NCBI GenBank assembly: GCA_045632405.1
Contig: JAZQWO010000054.1
Span: 2,291 to 66,290, forward strand
Direction of reading: 5' to 3'
Length of the DNA: 64,000 nucleotides
Source: Eubacteriales bacterium
GTDB taxonomy: Bacteria > Bacillota > Clostridia > Oscillospirales > CAG-272
Shown piece after piece: positions 7,673 to 43,269 of this stretch; position 1 is the stretch's first letter, and each line of letters starts with the position of its first letter. The position numbers and the translations under genes were made by a program. A model generated the notes under the pieces. That model ran no database searches. It worked only from the letters and a program-made list of their open reading frames with translations, and was not told the DNA's origin.

Positions 7673-7747
7673 GCTGACGTAGCACAGTGGTAGTGCAGCT
7701 GATTCGTAATCAGCAGGTCGTGAGTTCAAATCTCATCGTCAGCTCCA
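7673..7747 (+). tRNA. tRNA-Thr (anticodon CGU)
   Basis: The cloverleaf folds by hand: acceptor GCTGACG/CGTCAGC, anticodon stem GCTGA/TCAGC with loop TTCGTAA, T-loop TTCAAAT, and an encoded CCA. Confidence 0.9.
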
Positions 7748-16670: not shown

Positions 16671-16850
16671 AAAAAATCCACCTGTGCTTCAGGTGGCGAA
16701 AAACGGCAGGGAGTGTCCATAAAACACGCCCAAAAGCCAACAACCTCTTCCATCCGGACTATCACCGTCGGTCTCGGAGTTGCACCGAGTCAACGCGCAC
16801 GCGCTTGCGGACTATACCGCCGATAAGGAATTACACCTATCCCTGAAGTA
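16671..16850 (-). promoter_or_regulatory. FMN riboswitch (RFN element) with terminator expression platform
   Basis: The minus strand reads CTTCAGGGATAGGTGTAATTCCTTATCGGCGGTATAGTCCGCAAGC...CTCGGTGCAACTCCGAGACCGACGGTGATAGTCCGGATGGAAGAG. It is followed by GCCACCTGAAGCACAGGTGG-TTTTTT. Confidence 0.9.
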
Positions 16851-16874
16851 TTACTATTTTATTCGTTTTTTAAT

Positions 16875-34504: not shown

Positions 34505-34528
34505 GTTATGATAAAAGGGATGCCGATA

Positions 34529-34730
34529 GCGTGATACTCTTAACGGAGTATCACGCTAACTCTATTCGCCTGCGGCGATATGATGCATTTGCTTCGCAAA
34601 TATGATGTTGCTCCACTTCGGTCGCAATGATGCGATGTTTGCCACAATGTGCCGTCAGGCACACATCATTAGGCGTAGCCGTCATCATTAGGCGTAGCCC
34701 AACATCATTTGCCGAAGGCAAACATCATCC
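34529..34730 (+). repeat. structured repeat: the 26-nt hairpin GTGATACTC-TTAACG-GAGTATCAC followed by hairpin-ladder A (word ATGATG / CATCAT)
   Basis: The hairpin at 34531-34554 is identical to the first 26 nt of the 356-nt elements. ATGATG occurs at 34580, 34602 and 34627. CATCAT occurs at 34664, 34683, 34703 and 34723. Mini-hairpins lie between the words. Confidence 0.8.
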
Positions 34731-34752
34731 AAAAAACGCGCAAACGGTGCGC
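34731..34752 (-). terminator. terminator of the 142-aa ORF
   Basis: The minus strand reads GCGCACCGTTTGCGC followed by GTTTTTT. Confidence 0.6.
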
Positions 34753-34809
34753 AAGTGTAGGTAAAAACGCAAAAAAGGTGCGTAAAGTCGGCAAGTTGGC
34801 TTTGAACTC

Positions 34810-35238
34810 TTATGTCAAATCTAGAGAAGTAAAGCCTAAAGCGTTAAGCTTCTTTTGAAAGGCATAGAACTCTGAATACTTCTTTGCATACGGATTCCAG
34901 CCGATCTTTTTCAAGAATCGTGTAAATGCCGTTTTCTTCAATGGTATGTAAAATCTTGTATGGTGAGTGGGTGTAAAGAACTCAAAGAAAGGAAAACATC
35001 TGCCGCCAATGCATTTTAATCTACCCTCTCGTTGTTCGGGCGATATGCCCTGCGCCAAATCGAAGTTTTTAGCGCATTCGTCGAGATTGATTTTTTCGGT
35101 TTCTCCATCACTGTTTTTGAAAACCAACTCTTCCGAGGTAATTTCAATAATGTTTCCAACCGGTATTTTTATTACAGTAGCTTCGTCTTCTATATGATAT
35201 GCCTCTTGAATTGATTTGTAAAATTCGTCCCAACTCAT
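34810..35238 (-). CDS. hypothetical cytoplasmic protein, no recognisable family
   Basis: 142-aa ORF with its own promoter, RBS (GGCGGTGA) and terminator. No signal peptide or TM segment. Confidence 0.6.
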   Translation of the reverse strand: MSWDEFYKSIQEAYHIEDEATVIKIPVGNIIEITSEELVFKNSDGETEKINLDECAKNFDLAQGISPEQREGRLKCIGGRCFPFFEFFTPTHHTRFYIPLKKTAFTRFLKKIGWNPYAKKYSEFYAFQKKLNALGFTSLDLT

Positions 35239-35261
35239 GTTTTCACCGCCTTTTCACCTTT

Positions 35262-35290
35262 ATTATACCACACTCTCGCAAATAAATCAA
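35262..35290 (-). promoter_or_regulatory. promoter of the 142-aa ORF
   Basis: TTGATT, 17 nt, TATAAT with a TG extension on the minus strand. The -35 overlaps the first hairpin arm of ladder B. Confidence 0.5.
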
Positions 35291-35465
35291 GGCGAAGCCT
35301 TGTATATCATCCGCAACTTGTTGCGGTATATCATCAATGCGAAGCATTGTATATCATCAAGCCGCAGGGAGATGCACGCTGGCGCGTGATGAGATACAGC
35401 CCCAAAGGGGCTGATGATATGCACCGCACGTTGTGCGGTGATGATATGCCAAGCCTGCGGCTTGG
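35288..35465. repeat. hairpin-ladder B (word TATATCATC / GATGATAT)
   Basis: TATATCATC occurs at 35303, 35327 and 35350. GATGAGATA/GATGATAT occurs at 35388, 35413 and 35440. The hairpins include CAAGGC-GAA-GCCTTG, CGCAAC-TTG-TTGCG, AATGC-GAA-GCATT, CAGCCCC-AAA-GGGGCTG and CCAAGCC-TGC-GGCTTGG. Confidence 0.8.
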
Positions 35466-35471
35466 ATAAAC

Positions 35472-35508
35472 AAAAAAGGAACTTTTGGTAAACAAAAGTT
35501 CCTTTTTT
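35472..35508. terminator. terminator behind the tRNA pair (bidirectional shape)
   Basis: AAAAAA-GGAACTTTTG-GTAAA-CAAAAGTTCC-TTTTTT. Confidence 0.75.
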
Positions 35509-35510
35509 GT

Positions 35511-35595
35511 TGGTGGGGGATGGTGGATTCGGACCACCGAAGTCAGTGACAACAGATTTACAGTCTGCCCCCTTTGGCCGCTCGGGAAATCCCCC
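35511..35595 (-). tRNA. tRNA-Tyr (anticodon GUA), long variable arm
   Basis: The reverse complement reads GGGGGATTTCCCGAGCGG...GACTGTAAATC...GGTGGTCCGAATCCACCATCCCCCACCA. Confidence 0.9.
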
Positions 35596-35610
35596 AAATG
35601 TTGCAAGATT

Positions 35611-35685
35611 TGGAGCTGGCGAACGGAGTCGAACCATCAACCTGCTGATTACAAATCAGCTGCTCTGCCATTGAGCCACGCCAGC
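35611..35685 (-). tRNA. tRNA-Thr (anticodon UGU)
   Basis: The reverse complement reads GCTGGCGTGGCTCAATGGCAGAGCAGCTGATTTGTAATCAGCAGGTTGATGGTTCGACTCCGTTCGCCAGCTCCA. Confidence 0.9.
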
Positions 35686-38647: not shown

Positions 38648-38675
38648 ATTATATCATTTATTTTTTTCTTGTCAA
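38648..38675 (-). promoter_or_regulatory. copA promoter
   Basis: TTGACA, 16 nt, TATAAT on the minus strand. Confidence 0.5.
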
Positions 38676-38706
38676 TCAAAGAGCCGAAATTACTTCTTTA
38701 AAAAAA

Positions 38707-39092
38707 CGTGGCGCTATTAGCGTGATACTCTTAACGGAGTATCACGCCGTCAAATCCGTCTTCGACGGGTGAAATCCACCTACGGTGGATGAAATCGCTT
38801 TCGCGATGAAATCCTGCTTCGCAGGGTTGTTTTTAGACGGATTTGATTTCATCCAAGGCAACGCTTTGGATTTCATCTGAACGAAGTGAAGATTTCATCG
38901 TTGCTGTGCAACGATTTCATTAAACCAACAGAAAAAGAGGAAACTTTTCGGCTATTAACCGATTTGTTTCCTCTTTCTGTTTGTATAGGGGTTTGGGCTT
39001 AGCCCATTTGCGTTTGACTAGTCAAATGCGATGCTCGCACTTAGCGGTGTTTTCAAATTCTCCGCTAAGAATATCACACATTTAGCGCCACG
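38707..39092 (+). mobile_element. 356-nt TIR-bounded non-coding structured element (38722-39077) sitting between the arms of the feo terminator stem (38707-38716 / 39083-39092)
   Basis: TIRs are GTGATACTCTTAACGGAG and CTCCGCTAAGAATATCAC. Ladder C (GATGAAATC / GATTTCAT) spans 38749-38920. The outer stem CGTGGCGCTA/TAGCGCCACG has a T7 run on the minus strand. An inverted homologous copy lies at 42887-43242. Confidence 0.7.
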
Positions 39093-39094
39093 CA

Positions 39095-39286
39095 TTATTT
39101 TTCTTCATTTTTTGGAATTCCACAGCCACAGGAGCAGCCGTTGCAGTTGCCTGAGCAGGTCTTGCTATCAGGACAACCGATACATTTTTTGCCACTCTTT
39201 TTTGCGTGGATTATATAGGCGATAGCGCCGCCTACCAAAGCCCCAACAATTGCAATAGCAACTACGGTTGAAAGTACAGGTCCCAT
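39095..39286 (-). CDS. FeoB-associated Cys-rich membrane peptide
   Basis: 63 aa. One TM helix and then CIGCPDSKTCSGNCNGCSCGCG. It abuts the feoB stop. Confidence 0.8.
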   Translation of the reverse strand: MGPVLSTVVAIAIVGALVGGAIAYIIHAKKSGKKCIGCPDSKTCSGNCNGCSCGCGIPKNEEK

Positions 39287-41337
39287 TATGCAGCCACCTT
39301 TTCTCCCTTTTTGCCATTTGCTTCAGCCTTTTGTCTTTTGTTGTTTTTTATAATAAGATAAACCAACACAAAAATCACCAAAGCCACAATTGCCCAACCG
39401 AGAATTGGCATCCAGAGGGACGCATATGAAAGCTCAGAGCTAAAAACAGTTCCAAAGAATGTAATCAAGAAGCTTAAGGTGAAGCCAACACTGAATTGCA
39501 AGCCAATTCCTGCAAACAACCACTTTTTGCTATTCATTTCAGAATTCATAGCACCGATTGCCGCAAAGCAAGGCGGTGTGAAAAGGTTGAACACAAGATA
39601 TGATATTGCCAAAACGCCAGGAATAACGGAAAGCTCGCCCAAGCCACCAACCGCCTCCAAATCGTCATTGATAGCGAATGCAAAGCAAACGGAAAGGGTT
39701 GCAACAACATTTTCCTTTGCGATAAAGCCTGTGATAGATGCTGCCGCCAGCTTCCACAGATACCCAACAGCTATTACACCGAAAACAGGCGCAAAAAGAT
39801 AGCCAAATGGAGTTGCGATTGTGGCAAGAATTGAGTCTGACGCATCCTCTGCCGCCAATGAGAAGGTCCAGGTAAATGAGGACATCAGATGAACAACCGC
39901 GTTACATACAAGAATGATAGTTCCTGCCTTTACAACATAAGACCAGCCGCGCTGGAGCATTGATTTTACAGCACCCCAGATGCTTGGTGCCTTATATTCG
40001 GGCAATTCAATTATGAAATAGGATTTTTTCCTTCTTTGTCCTGTTACAAGGTTAACAAGCAACGCGCCAAAGAAGATAATAACAATTCCCATAAAGTACA
40101 TCAGAGGAGCTACCCACCATTTTTCCGCAAAGAACCTTGAGAACAAGGCAATTACAGGAAGCTTAGCGCCACAAGGCATAAAGGGGGCAAGCATTGCCGT
40201 TGCACGGCGTTCCCTCTCGTTGCGGATGGTACGTGATGCCATAACGCCTGGGATGGCACAACCAACACCGATAACAAAAGGAATTACGGATTTACCCGAA
40301 AGACCAACCTTTTTGAAAATAGGGTCTAAAACAACGGACACGCGCGCCATATAGCCACAGTCCTCAAGAAGTGCAATCAAGAAGTACATCACCATAACGA
40401 GAGGCAAAAAGCCCACAACTGCGCCAACACCGCCAATGATACCGTCAACGATTAGTGAGGACAAAAACGCGGGAGCATTTTCAAGCCAACCAGAAACTGC
40501 CTCTCCAAACCAATCAATAACATTCACAAGTCCCCAAACGTGATATTCGTTTGCTTCGCCTGCGTCGAAGGTATAGCCCTCTGCAAGCCAAACACCCGGT
40601 CCTGCCTGAGAAATCCAGAAAACGAGGAACATAACTGCAGCAAAAATCGGAATACCAAGCCACTTGTTGATAAGAATATCGTCTATTTTGTCTTGCTTGT
40701 TTTTCTCGTTTGTATTTATTTTGCGAGCCTCAACCTCGCTAACTATCTTATTAACAAATGCAAATCTTTTCCTATCTGCCTTTTCTGCAAGCTCCTTGTC
40801 GGTAATGTCACTCTCCGCCTGCACAAATGGGGCTCTTTGTGTTTTGCCAACCGATTCAGTAGCCTTTTTCACCACGTCCTCAAGTCCTTTTGCGGAAATG
40901 GACACGGTATCAATAACAGGGCAACCAAGAAGCTCGGACAAGCGCGCGGAATCAATTTTTGTTTCCTTTTTCTTATTAATATCCGCCTTGTTAAGAGCAA
41001 CAACCACAGGAATACCAAGCTCCAAGAGCTGTGTTGTGAAAAACAAGCTGCGGCTAAGGTTAGTTGCATCTACAATGTTAATGATAGCATCCGGCTTTTC
41101 GTTTTTTATATAGTCACTTGTAACACCCTCCTCAGATGTAAAGGGCGTCATAGAATATGTGCCGGGCAAATCCACCGCCATAATGTCCGCGCCGCCGCAC
41201 AATGACTTTTTTATGGGATGAGATTTTTTATCAACAGTAACACCCGCCCAGTTGCCCACTTTTTCCTGACTTCCTGTCAAAGCATTGAACATAGTGGTTT
41301 TGCCACTGTTGGGGTTACCTGCTAATGCGATTATCAT
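39286..41337 (-). CDS. feoB: ferrous iron transporter B
   Basis: N-terminal G domain (ALAGNPNSGKTT) and a polytopic C-terminal permease. Confidence 0.95.
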   Translation of the reverse strand: MIIALAGNPNSGKTTMFNALTGSQEKVGNWAGVTVDKKSHPIKKSLCGGADIMAVDLPGTYSMTPFTSEEGVTSDYIKNEKPDAIINIVDATNLSRSLFFTTQLLELGIPVVVALNKADINKKKETKIDSARLSELLGCPVIDTVSISAKGLEDVVKKATESVGKTQRAPFVQAESDITDKELAEKADRKRFAFVNKIVSEVEARKINTNEKNKQDKIDDILINKWLGIPIFAAVMFLVFWISQAGPGVWLAEGYTFDAGEANEYHVWGLVNVIDWFGEAVSGWLENAPAFLSSLIVDGIIGGVGAVVGFLPLVMVMYFLIALLEDCGYMARVSVVLDPIFKKVGLSGKSVIPFVIGVGCAIPGVMASRTIRNERERRATAMLAPFMPCGAKLPVIALFSRFFAEKWWVAPLMYFMGIVIIFFGALLVNLVTGQRRKKSYFIIELPEYKAPSIWGAVKSMLQRGWSYVVKAGTIILVCNAVVHLMSSFTWTFSLAAEDASDSILATIATPFGYLFAPVFGVIAVGYLWKLAAASITGFIAKENVVATLSVCFAFAINDDLEAVGGLGELSVIPGVLAISYLVFNLFTPPCFAAIGAMNSEMNSKKWLFAGIGLQFSVGFTLSFLITFFGTVFSSELSYASLWMPILGWAIVALVIFVLVYLIIKNNKRQKAEANGKKGEKVAA

Positions 41338-41362
41338 ACTTTTCTCCTTTCATTGCAAGGAA

Positions 41363-41380
41363 AGTTAGTCAACACTAACT
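41363..41380. promoter_or_regulatory. palindromic operator-like site AGTTAGTCAACACTAACT
   Basis: Inverted arms AGTTAGT/ACTAACT in the feoA-feoB gap. A near-identical 18-mer lies at 41643-41660. Confidence 0.4.
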
Positions 41381-41403
41381 CCTGCGCAAAAAAATATTAA
41401 AGA

Positions 41404-41622
41404 TTATTCTCTGATTTCAATAACCTCGCAAAGATTTTTGTCAAAGCTATATCTGCTATCCTTGATAGATACAGTGCAACCGCTTCTGCGCTGTGCAATT
41501 ACCGTAATTGGCTCTCCACTGTAGCAGCCAAGAGAAAACAAGAAGGAATTCAATTCATCATCGTCCGTGTCAACACGCACAACGATATATTCCACGCCCT
41601 CTTTTGCGTCACGTAAGGTCAT
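41404..41622 (-). CDS. feoA: ferrous iron transport protein A
   Basis: I chose the start MTLRDAKEGVEY at 41622, behind an AGGAGGG RBS. It is a 72-aa SH3-like FeoA. Confidence 0.85.
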   Translation of the reverse strand: MTLRDAKEGVEYIVVRVDTDDDELNSFLFSLGCYSGEPITVIAQRRSGCTVSIKDSRYSFDKNLCEVIEIRE

Positions 41623-41642
41623 AAAAACCCTCCTTTCAAGCA

Positions 41643-41660
41643 AGTTAGTCTTGCCTAACT
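41643..41660. promoter_or_regulatory. palindromic operator-like site AGTTAGTCTTGCCTAACT
   Basis: It lies between the -10 box and the RBS of feoA and has the same arms as 41363-41380. Confidence 0.45.
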
Positions 41661-41666
41661 GCGTAT

Positions 41667-41695
41667 ATTTTAGCCTACTTACTGTCATTTGTCAA
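41667..41695 (-). promoter_or_regulatory. feoA promoter
   Basis: TTGACA, 17 nt, TAAAAT on the minus strand. Confidence 0.6.
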
Positions 41696-41834
41696 GTACC
41701 TTTCAAAAGTTTTTTAAAATTTTAGCAATTATGCCCTCGCAAAGCAAAATTTTACATAAAAATTTTATGCAACTTTACAGAGAAAAAATACGTGCAAGCC
41801 GCCTCTTGGCTCGCACGTATTTTTAATATACTTT

Positions 41835-42770
41835 TCAATACACATAGAAAGGCTCGCCAAAAGCGCCCTCGCAATAGTAAATGCTAAAGGTATCACCAAT
41901 TTCGTACCGACGGTAATCCTGACCGTAAACAGCTATTTCGGTTTTTTCACCGTTGATTTCTACAATCAGATAATAGTCCGTAGAGTCGCCCGAGGTATCC
42001 TTGTCCTTGCCTATTATTTCCTGCTCCATTTTATATGGCTCACTTGTGTCAAGAGCGAAGTTCAAGTGATTTGCACTGCTCCAGGTAAGGGCGAAGAAAA
42101 TAAAGCAAACTATAAAAATGGATGCAATTTTTTCGCTTTTTCTGTTGTCCTTCAACCTTGCCGCGCCTGTGAAAAGCAAATACCCCGCCAAAGCACCAAG
42201 CAAAACGCCAATTATTAAGGCAGGCAGCCAAAACTTCACACTTCCCTTTTCGCCTTCAACATAATTATACATTCTCATATCGTTAAAGAACAAGAGAAAA
42301 TCCAAGCAAACGCCTGTTACCATAATGCCTCTGATTTTAAGCTCCCTGTAACCGCCGAAAAGTGAGGTAAAGGAAAGCAGAAATACAAGGAACCCATACC
42401 AAATGGTTATCATATCGTAAATCAAAAGCACCTTGCCGCCAAAAAACAGAGTCAGTATCCAACCGACGCCAAGCATAACCAAGCCTATTCTGAATGGTAT
42501 AACTCTTTGCTCCTTATTGGCTATGGCGCATATAATAAACGGCACGCCTATCAATAGTCTGATAATAACATTAAAGGCAAAATTATCTGCCAAGGCGGGC
42601 ACTCTTGCAATTAAAATCAACCATACCAAAAACGCGGCAATGGCTACCCACATTATATTAAATTTGGGGAATTTTCTTTTTTTCTTTATACCAAAGGTTT
42701 CCTCGTCAATGGCGCTGTTTTCCGTCGCTGCGCACTCCTCAGTTGTGTTTTCTATATCAAATTCGTCCAT
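41835..42770 (-). CDS. hypothetical polytopic membrane protein
   Basis: 311 aa. An acidic N-terminus, about 7 hydrophobic helices and a roughly 70-aa C-terminal soluble tail. No motif recognised. Confidence 0.6.
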   Translation of the reverse strand: MDEFDIENTTEECAATENSAIDEETFGIKKKRKFPKFNIMWVAIAAFLVWLILIARVPALADNFAFNVIIRLLIGVPFIICAIANKEQRVIPFRIGLVMLGVGWILTLFFGGKVLLIYDMITIWYGFLVFLLSFTSLFGGYRELKIRGIMVTGVCLDFLLFFNDMRMYNYVEGEKGSVKFWLPALIIGVLLGALAGYLLFTGAARLKDNRKSEKIASIFIVCFIFFALTWSSANHLNFALDTSEPYKMEQEIIGKDKDTSGDSTDYYLIVEINGEKTEIAVYGQDYRRYEIGDTFSIYYCEGAFGEPFYVY

Positions 42771-42872
42771 ATGCTCAACTCCTTTATTAAATTATAACAG
42801 AAAAACGCCCCTGTGTCAATCAACCAACGGTTGATTATCTCAACTGTAAATATTGATTTTGTCAAAACAAAA

Positions 42873-43256
42873 ACGGCAGATATAGGGTGATGTCCTTAGC
42901 GGAGAATTATTGCTTTGACAAAAGTGCAAGCATCGCATTTGACTGGTCAAACGCAATATGGGCTAAGCCCAAACCCTTATTACAAGCAGAAAGAGAGAAC
43001 AAATTGGGAAAACCGAAATGTCCTCTCTTTTTCTGTTGGATAAATGAAATCGTGGTTGAACCACGATGAAATCTTCGCACGGCTCAGATGAAATCCAAGG
43101 TCAAGACCTTGGATGAAATCAAATCCGTCCGAGCTTAACCCTGCGAAGCAGGATTTCACCGCGAAGCGATTTCATCCACCATAGGTGGATTTCACCCGTC
43201 GAAGACGGATTTGACTGCGTGATACTCCGTTAAGAGTATCACTCTATCTCTGCCGT
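42873..43256 (-). mobile_element. inverted second copy of the 356-nt structured element (42887-43242) between the arms of the EF-G-like gene terminator stem (42873-42885 / 43244-43256)
   Basis: The reverse complement aligns over its full length with 38722-39077 and has the same length. The first 26 nt are identical. The outer stem ACGGCAGATATAG/CTATCTCTGCCGT differs from the stem at the other copy. Confidence 0.7.
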
Positions 43257-43269
43257 TTTTTGCTATTAT

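Follow-up and report, generated by a model that had tools for sequence, protein, structure and literature searches.

What are the two inverted repeats that bracket the feoA-feoB genes in a 64,000-nucleotide (nt) stretch of contig JAZQWO010000054.1 from Eubacteriales bacterium, and how did they come to lie inside transcription terminators? We refer to the whole stretch as the window and to the two repeats as copy L and copy R. An earlier note on this DNA had read them as copies of a non-autonomous element, resembling a miniature inverted-repeat transposable element (MITE), that inserts into terminator hairpin loops. That reading is supported by the insertion polymorphism at both sites and by the split-stem context of other family members, which are described below. 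Copies L and R are 362-base pair (bp) homologs, each in the loop of an intrinsic terminator, that of the feo operon and that of an EF-G-like gene, respectively.

The homologous parts of the two copies lie at 38722–39077 on the plus strand and at 42887–43242 on the minus strand; at 356 nt each, they align end to end. The coordinates in the earlier note were right, and its estimate of about four-fifths identity compares with a measured global identity of 302/361 (84%); the mean column identity of 88% in a MAFFT alignment counts the flanks too. At the 5′ ends the copies share 83 nt at 96% identity. Because 3 more nt at either end belong to the element, the mobile unit is 362 nt rather than 356 nt, so that the proposed extent held for the homologous part and fell short of the true unit at both ends. 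The complete copy L (AGC + 356 nt + ACA) occupies 38719–39080 (+) and the complete copy R (AGA + 356 nt + CCT on the minus strand) 42884–43245 (−). Folding and exact-repeat search place the 5′ terminal repeat of copy L at 38722–38747 (+) as a 9-bp hairpin, GTGATACTC-TTAACG-GAGTATCAC, with its equivalent in copy R at 43217–43242 (−). This terminal hairpin is the most conserved part of the family. A 26-mer, GTGATACTCTTAACGGAGTATCACGC, had been reported from both copies and from the start of a third locus, module A; exact matches to its 24-nt core GTGATACTCTTAACGGAGTATCAC number three in the window (34531, 38722 and 43242, −) and 0 in shuffles, and all three sites continue to ...CGC past the core. 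The imperfect terminal inverted repeats of about 18 nt that the note described are present at both ends of both copies: the 3′ ends CTCCGCTAAGAATATCAC (39060–39077) and CTCCGCTAAGGACATCAC (42887–42904, −) imperfectly repeat the first 18 nt in inverted orientation, and the 18-nt end pattern has 5 matches in the window against 0.07 expected. With the 3 nt added at each end, the terminal inverted repeats of about 21 bp take the form NNN + G[T/G]GATRYNCTTARCGGAG; they have 2–4 mismatches between ends and are kept family-wide.

Outside these ends lies host sequence. Copy L is bordered by the dinucleotide TT at 38717–38718 (+) and, a second time, at 39081–39082 (+), read directly from the sequence and in line with the family-wide rule given below; we take it as a 2-bp duplication and a putative crossover core. 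Beyond it stand the host arms CGTGGCGCTA/TAGCGCCACG at 38707–38716/39083–39092. The first of these, together with TTTTTTT on the minus strand, forms the distal half of the split feo-operon terminator (38700–38716, −), and the second is its proximal arm (39083–39092, −). At copy R the junction dinucleotide is AT (43246–43247 and 42882–42883, −), and the host arms CGGCAGAG../..ATCTGCCG lie at 43248–43255/42874–42881. The proximal arm with its A-run (43248–43260, −) and the distal arm with its T-run (42869–42881, −) are the two halves of the split terminator of the EF-G-like gene. At both sites the arms form a perfect inverted repeat that differs between L and R and is edged by A and T runs, which is the site-specific, GC-rich stem with T-runs of the earlier description. 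Inside both copies we found the two conserved hairpins already noticed, TGGGC-TT-AGCCCA and GCGTTTGAC-NN-GTCAAATGC. As the note had also observed, the copies have no open reading frame (ORF) of at least 50 aa in common; the 60-aa ORF at 42887–43069 has no counterpart in copy L. Copies L and R hence show the traits by which a MITE is recognized, being small (below about 600 bp), non-coding and multicopy, with terminal inverted repeats, a duplication and polymorphism.

The polymorphism comes from relatives. Three of their contigs (L126, L127 and L128) were retrieved by look-up of the 63-aa peptide adjoining FeoB; exact-protein look-ups of FeoB and of a neighbouring 311-aa protein gave no match. 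The empty sites that the earlier note had proposed to look for were found for both copies, and gave the element ends and the 2-bp duplication. At the copy L site, L127 and L128 have an empty feo terminator, GCGTGGCGCT-AAGT-AGCGCCACGTTTTTTT, in which the two arms are joined, and L126 keeps a copy L that is 99.4% identical to that of the window. At the copy R site, L126 and L127 have an empty EF-G terminator, CGGCAGAG-AT-ATCTGCCGTTTTT; in L126 this intact terminator reads AAAAAACGGCAGAG-AT-ATCTGCCGTTTTTG. The flanks of the empty sites in close relatives are about 94–98% identical to the window. In metagenomes, contigs of runs X1 and X3 join position 42880 to 43245 at flank depth, skipping the 364 nt of copy R, and run X2 holds a variant of the same empty site, while copy L is present in 4/4 runs. 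The insertion adds 364 nt at each site, that is, 362 nt (3 + 356 + 3) and a 2-bp duplication. The occupied copy R site has, to the left and right of the element, the same AT that forms the middle of the GATA loop when the site is empty. Four independent assemblies and three read sets show the empty sites, which makes an assembly artefact unlikely. This comparison shows directly that copies L and R are independent insertions into pre-existing terminator loops.

Run X4 has a 1469-nt alternative sequence at the copy R site, which is the arrangement of L127. We considered a longer family member as its source and rejected this, as the joint is explained by L127:1071-2360, an unrelated 429-aa ORF of no Pfam family that separates the intact EF-G terminator from the 311-aa gene. 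Directly downstream of the two insertions lie perfect 12/12 sigma-70-type promoters with TG extensions, at 38648–38675 (−), serving the P-type ATPase gene, and at 42791–42819 (−), serving the 311-aa gene. Termination lost through copies L or R would mean read-through straight into these two genes.

To see how far the element extends beyond this locus, species-representative genomes were scanned by pattern matching of both ends, which gave at least 120 loci. Of the 120 listed, a crude family test accepts at least 104, and three are plainly matches by chance. The carriers among the matches listed are nearly all Clostridia metagenome-assembled genomes (MAGs) from ruminant and human guts, and belong to Oscillospiraceae, Acutalibacteraceae, Christensenellaceae and Ruminococcus. 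Family matches often lie at contig ends, several copies can occur inside single 8-kb loci (e.g. L037), and in metagenomes the depth inside the element is 10–40 times the flank depth. A viral origin was rejected, as all 18 IMG/VR matches are chance matches inside coding sequence.

Complete elements measure 234–392 nt and share a near-universal layout, [A-run + ~10-nt arm]-NN-RGC-GTGATAC...ATCAC-NNN-NN-[arm' + T-run]. A search for copies elsewhere in split stems, which the earlier note had called for, found site-specific inverted arms around 8/10 complete elements and then around about 20 more. In 54 distinct flanks at the hairpin-type end, A makes up 72–87% at positions −19 to −14 and is followed by a G/C-rich arm of about 10 nt. 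The junction dinucleotide of these flanks is TT in 29 cases and AT in 17, with AA in only 4, and about 20 other complete elements have the same dinucleotide at both junctions, as does copy R, where it is found in the empty target too. A fixed crossover core should give such a preference for TT and AT over AA, which a random staggered cut should not. The family therefore targets intrinsic terminators that look largely bidirectional, inserting in the loop, and the polarity of the dinucleotide is fixed relative to the element.

Site-specific terminator stems also hold solo units of about 30 nt, AGC-GTGATACTC-TTAACG-GAGTATCAC-GCT (L043:529-560, L091:6945-6975 and L083), of which the one in L043 is flanked by AT...AT. 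These units resemble elements reduced to a pair of terminal half-sites, and one such unit forms the 5′ hairpin of every full element. At L044:3144-3169 and L092:3606-3631 the loop of the 5′ hairpin is flipped relative to the element (TTAACG versus CGTTAA), as if the palindrome had been inverted.

The same inverted ends, again in split-stem context, bound larger units. Cargo cassettes of 0.8–4.6 kb (L003, L024, L028, L039, L051, L069 and L101) have one end that is followed by a conserved hairpin and an extended −10 promoter directed inward (TCGGCAGAGAAC..TCTCTGCCGATTTGTGnTATAATGG). Their cargo includes a PF05635 four-helix-bundle '23S rRNA-intervening sequence protein' (L028), DUF559, a C5 methyltransferase with a neighbouring ORF, and a large helicase-like protein; the cassette at L089 holds an rve/IS481-like transposase. 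An ORF like a transposase of the RAYT family is present only as cargo (L024) and has no Pfam hit.

A gene at a set distance from the end was seen for another enzyme. In L021, L050, L067 and L106 the terminal repeat lies about 73–90 nt past the stop codon of a large serine recombinase, whose close relatives have the Resolvase, Recombinase, zinc ribbon and DUF4368 domains of the TnpX/TndX type. Recombinases of this kind are encoded in L021, L067, L106 and L121–L125. The last five loci are complete elements of 5.2–10.9 kb; both of their ends carry the inverted repeat G[T/G]GATGTNCTTAACGGAG, and the recombinase is found at one of them. Of the site-specific arms outside, those of L121, L123 and L124 are clear matches and those of L122 and L125 imperfect ones. 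An identical recombinase protein, P0009, stands at three genomic sites. The non-coding elements have 20–22 nt in common with the recombinase-proximal end, at 95% identity. A derivation of their interior from the recombinase element was rejected, since these roughly 22 terminal nt are all that the two have in common. The longer relative with the same ends that the earlier note had proposed to look for thus exists, at 5–11 kb, with a large serine recombinase as its enzyme in place of a DDE transposase. Durrant et al. (2022; PMC10083194) described a clade of multi-targeting, TndX-like recombinases, 63% of them with DUF4368, and for one clade member an attB logo with a TT core and T/A-enriched ends; terminators and hairpins are mentioned 0 times in that paper. 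Among the complete recombinase elements, L121–L125 carry defence-type cargo, namely SIR2_2, a ResIII helicase, N6/N4 and D12 methyltransferases, an Eco57I-type enzyme and NOV_C, and the element of L122 adjoins a type II-A CRISPR-Cas locus.

What the 362-nt elements carry instead of genes is a strongly folded interior. Fold z-scores against shuffles are −12.1 for copy L and −9.5 for copy R on the element strands; folding the opposite strand of copy L gives −12.3. The interior begins with a hairpin ladder (38747–38920, +, in copy L; 43044–43217, −, in copy R). Ladders are generally built of four words of 7–8 nt, each with a 4–8-bp hairpin, a central segment, and four complementary words, each again with a hairpin; in copy L this gives 4 × (RTGAAAT + hairpin), the central segment and 4 × (ATTTCAT + hairpin). 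Across subfamilies the rung words co-vary between the ladder halves, with the pairs GTGAAAT/ATTTCA, GTGATATT/AATATCAC, GTGATGTT/AACATCAC, GTGAAGTT/AACTTCAC and GTTATGA/TCATAAC, and further pairs exist. In sequence, these words are similar to the 8 nt at the outer edge of the terminal repeat. The ladder is followed by a 3′ domain of about 150 nt that is conserved across subfamilies. In copy L (38926–39077, +) it consists of a long S1 hairpin, a GGGC-TTA-GCCC hairpin and the GCGTTTGAC/GTCAAATGC hairpin, and ends in the 3′ terminal repeat CTCCGCTAAGAATATCAC; the alignment of family members places the domain and terminal repeat of copy R at 42887–43038 (−). Double compensatory changes were found in 10/29 predicted pairs of the 3′ domain among 36 aligned members, one pair being AU in 14, GC in 14 and UA in 6. 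These changes indicate that base pairing is under selection. Four loci (L006, L012, L062 and L112) have an extra hairpin module of about 48 nt (GTGTAGGGGTTCCCCGAAGCGAAGTATGAGCTTTGGGGGTTCACGTAT) in the 3′ domain, which is also present in a metatranscriptome contig of run X31.

Part of the ladder is already known. The Rfam family Gut-1 (RF01706; gathering score 50) matches copy L at 38747–38817 (+) with 52.3 bits and copy R at 43148–43217 (−) with 58 bits, and five more matches of 51–59 bits lie in related loci. Gut-1 corresponds to the first 71 nt after the 5′ hairpin, the 5′ half of the ladder, out of 362 nt. Weinberg et al. (2010; PMC2864571) described it, from gut metagenomes only, as a likely non-coding RNA (ncRNA) of uncultivated human-gut bacteria. 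In metatranscriptome assemblies, sequences of the family reach a depth of up to 900, and the flanks of this genome are there near 0. We read the ladder and the 3′ domain as a non-coding cargo in its own right, whose base pairing is maintained by selection, and most likely as an RNA made by read-through from the host gene. We also calculated whether the terminator survives the insertion. The split stem re-forms with an equilibrium probability of 0.94–0.96 on both strands, and because shuffled interiors give the same values, the calculation is uninformative on whether the fold preserves the terminator. That a self-folding insert might keep the split terminator usable is one idea, which the calculation neither supports nor excludes.

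Two further ladder loci lie in the window. Repeat and ladder searches define module A at 34531–34725 (+), a 5′ hairpin and ladder with the rung word ATGATG/CATCAT. As no matching distal end was found for it in the window, we regard module A as a one-ended relative. It belongs to a strain-variable stretch of 977 nt (34523–35499) that adjoins two tRNA genes and in place of which L126 has an unrelated 197 nt. The stretch also holds ORF142 (34810–35238, −) and a second, free-standing ladder at 35286–35470 with the rung ATATCATC/GATGATAT, which has no family terminal repeats and whose minimum free energy (MFE) structure consists of nested rung helices with side hairpins (z = −8.7). This second ladder shows that ladders occur outside repeat-bounded elements. 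ORF142 was tried as a partner of the ladders and rejected, as it has no Pfam hit and no relative in the family loci. The Rfam scan of the window also returned unrelated, ordinary features, an FMN riboswitch (98.7 bits) and three tRNA genes, at 16738–16854 (−), 7673–7744 (+) and 35514–35685 (−).

Overall, we consider it likely that a non-autonomous element of 362 bp, moved by a recombinase acting in trans and carrying a structured RNA as cargo, inserted twice independently to give copies L and R. From the shared ends we infer that a TnpX/TndX-type large serine recombinase probably mobilizes the whole family. The enzyme would be supplied in trans by an autonomous relative elsewhere in the genome and would excise the element as a circle. 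The joined circle ends (repeat-NN-repeat) would then form an attP-like palindrome, which could recombine with an attB-like terminator palindrome made of an A-run, a G/C arm of about 10 bp, the dinucleotide WT in the loop, the second arm and a T-run; the 2-bp duplication would be the crossover dinucleotide. More tentatively, the family may be a cassette system of gut Clostridia in which a DUF4368 recombinase reads intrinsic terminators as genome-wide landing sites and full-length Gut-1 is a functional ornate RNA cargo. Units with only their ends of about 21 bp in common would then range from 30-nt hairpins over 362-nt RNA cassettes and promoter-plus-gene cassettes to defence islands of 5–11 kb. 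The Gut-1 cargo could, for example, rebuild a working terminator around the insertion, mimic with its repeated GTGAWRTT words the outermost 8 nt of the recombinase-binding end, or be excised from read-through RNA like an rRNA intervening sequence.

Several observations weigh against this reading of the mechanism and the cargo. At copy L both junctions are AA on the gene strand (TT on the element strand), whereas the centres of the empty sites in L127 (6204–6207) and L128 read AG instead of the expected AA; a strict crossover model needs a later substitution here, and we take the AG as such a single-base change. The duplication may also be of 3 bp instead of 2 bp at either window site. A recombinase of this type is encoded neither in the 64-kb window, as searched by tblastn, nor in copies L and R, and action in trans is therefore assumed. 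Circle or tandem junctions were not found in two scans of metagenome contigs and in the family loci, assemblies being poorly suited to rare 364-bp circles. The target arms differ site by site, which is unusual for a serine integrase and leaves unexplained how the sites are read. As to the RNA, an internal promoter was looked for in the elements and not found, and the metatranscriptome contigs are assembled, carry no strand or end information and may include DNA. The whole-element MFE shows no strand asymmetry (p = 0.84), and a wobble test that treats both strands alike has only a weak bias (24:13, p = 0.10; 36:20, p = 0.04, with related sequences). A test of G:U versus A:C by strand on RNAalifold stems gave 55:3 and was discounted as biased because the stems had been picked on one strand.

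The rival that shares most with our reading takes the structured RNA as primary: a full-length Gut-1 ncRNA gene acting in trans, with the repeats as its vehicle, in which selection at this locus maintains the RNA and not mobility. The strong covariation of the 3′ domain, the rung words that co-vary across subfamilies, the ladder without terminal repeats at 35286–35470 and the 99.4% identity at which copy L is kept in a related strain all suit it, as do the abundance of the family in metatranscriptome assemblies and the rating of Gut-1 as a likely RNA by Weinberg et al. (2010). It is harder to reconcile with the lack of a detected internal promoter, with the weak strand asymmetry and with the orientation of copies L and R, which is opposite relative to their flanking host genes, so that read-through would give opposite strands; the hairpins, moreover, equally fit selection on DNA or a harmless folding in either orientation. 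We hold this account to be possible but doubtful, and it adds to the mobile-element explanation without replacing it. Less probable still is that a DDE transposase which makes a staggered cut of 2 bp (or 3 bp) and favours hairpin loops moves the family as classical MITEs, the serine-recombinase elements then being one more cargo of the transposon. IS1397 and ISKpn1 prefer the loops of repetitive extragenic palindromes (REPs), and IS30-family elements prefer palindromes. The anatomy is that of a textbook MITE, small and ORF-less with a short duplication and inverted repeats at its ends, and the same ends surround many unrelated cargoes, among them the rve/IS481-like transposase of L089. That, however, is the one rve gene among the roughly 120 loci listed, and no DDE gene stands at a fixed position from the ends, whereas the serine recombinase lies about 73–90 nt from the end in nine loci. 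A staggered cut should also yield both dinucleotide polarities, but TT or AT was found in 46/54 flanks and AA in only 4, and for one member of the recombinase clade the published core is TT, with A/T-rich ends (PMC10083194).

The two remaining alternatives concern the feo locus itself. The inverted copies could make the 3.8-kb feoA-feoB block invertible or a composite transposon, as the earlier note had suggested from two inverted homologous copies, which do share 83 nt at 96% identity in their 5′ ends. The gene order (EF-G-like, 311-aa protein, FeoA, FeoB, 63-aa peptide, P-type ATPase) is nevertheless the same with and without the elements, and the orientation too is unchanged in L126, which has one copy, and in L127 and L128, which have none at the covered sites; the feo block is therefore ancestral. 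The copies are 84% identical overall, and their junctions differ, TT versus AT, so that exchange between L and R by a serine recombinase would be blocked. Strand-switching joints were absent from the four metagenomes, in which contigs breaking inside repeats could not have shown them. We consider an invertible or composite block very improbable and found nothing in support of that suggestion. We give practically no credence to the other alternative, in which feo and EF-G have inherited the sequence vertically as a structured part of their 3′ untranslated regions (UTRs) and the closing helix changes in step with the remainder. It is true that each copy is closed by a perfect, site-dependent stem, and copy L was seen in all four metagenomes. 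Yet relatives have intact, element-free terminators at both sites, and the element is found at more than 100 unrelated sites, where other copies split terminator stems too; the empty sites refute a feo 3′ UTR conserved by descent and without polymorphism. The variant of the earlier note in which the closing helix is part of the element and covaries is refuted as well, because the terminator stems exist intact without the element.

On the reading that we prefer, a terminator-embedded mobile element with RNA cargo, Gut-1, which has been in Rfam since 2010 without a context, corresponds to the first fifth of such an element, and its function now becomes testable. At least some of the 'relaxed', A/T-flanked TT targets of multi-targeting DUF4368 recombinases are suggested to be intrinsic terminators, and terminator targeting bears on the choice of sites by these enzymes, which are under development as genome-integration tools. 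An element that lands in a terminator loop leaves genes intact and allows the stem to pair again around it, which suggests a low cost; this may explain the abundance of the family in gut and rumen Clostridia and the broken MAG assemblies. In annotation, genuine terminators split by these repeats should be recognized as such, and the repeats are not to be called genes or conserved 3′ UTRs. In the literature we found no description of terminator-loop targeting by serine recombinases or of terminator-targeting MITEs, none of ORF-less (362-bp) derivatives or same-ended promoter-plus-gene cassettes of serine-recombinase elements, and none of the genomic context of Gut-1.

Among known systems, the TnpX/TndX-like transposons Tn4451 and Tn5397 use a GA core. 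With these transposons and the DUF4368 clade (PMC10083194) the family shares the domain set of its autonomous relatives, the use of many sites and a 2-bp core, and a TT core with A/T-rich ends fits the attB logo of one member; it differs in its terminators and hairpins, which are not mentioned there. The published Gut-1 motif (PMC2864571) is matched by both copies above the gathering threshold, and its gut origin agrees with that of the family, but it was presented as a stand-alone ncRNA without terminal repeats, 3′ domain or genomic context.

Two terminator- or palindrome-associated systems that were considered as matches did not fit. Class C terminator-targeting group II introns were rejected, as there is no Rfam group II match and the insertion lies in the loop and not after the stem; so were REPs and bacterial interspersed mosaic elements (BIMEs) with RAYT, since the arms here are host-specific and differ between sites and the elements have terminal repeats and a 2-bp duplication. 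Closer in arrangement are IS1397 and ISKpn1 of the IS3 family, autonomous DDE elements that insert in the loop of the REP palindrome, a single repeat family, with a 3–4 bp duplication. They share with our elements the precise insertion in an extragenic palindrome loop and the short duplication; in our case, however, the palindromes differ at each site and the elements are non-coding. The intervening sequences of 23S rRNA are foreign segments in an RNA hairpin loop, closed by a long stem. Here, too, an insert lies in a hairpin loop, and the L028 cassette carries PF05635, but the targets are terminators and not rRNA helices, and the likeness noted here is one of arrangement.

Staphylococcal cassette chromosome (SCC) elements that lack ccr, and cis-mobilizable elements (CIMEs), have recombination sites only and borrow the enzyme of an autonomous relative; they are kilobase-sized and use one chromosomal att site. 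Our elements are likewise non-autonomous and keep the sites alone, but at 0.03–0.4 kb and in hundreds of terminators. Bacterial MITEs (Correia/CREE, RUP and those derived from insertion sequences) are likewise small, ORF-less, multicopy and intergenic, often near terminators, with inverted repeats, a short duplication and ends in common with a longer autonomous element. They differ in that the candidate enzyme here is a serine recombinase, the target is the loop of a terminator palindrome, and the interior is a conserved, co-varying hairpin module and not the remnant of a deleted transposase. The element thus works like a MITE but is not DDE-derived, because its same-ended partner encodes a large serine recombinase, and by its ends it appears to fit as a non-autonomous member of a serine-recombinase transposon family.

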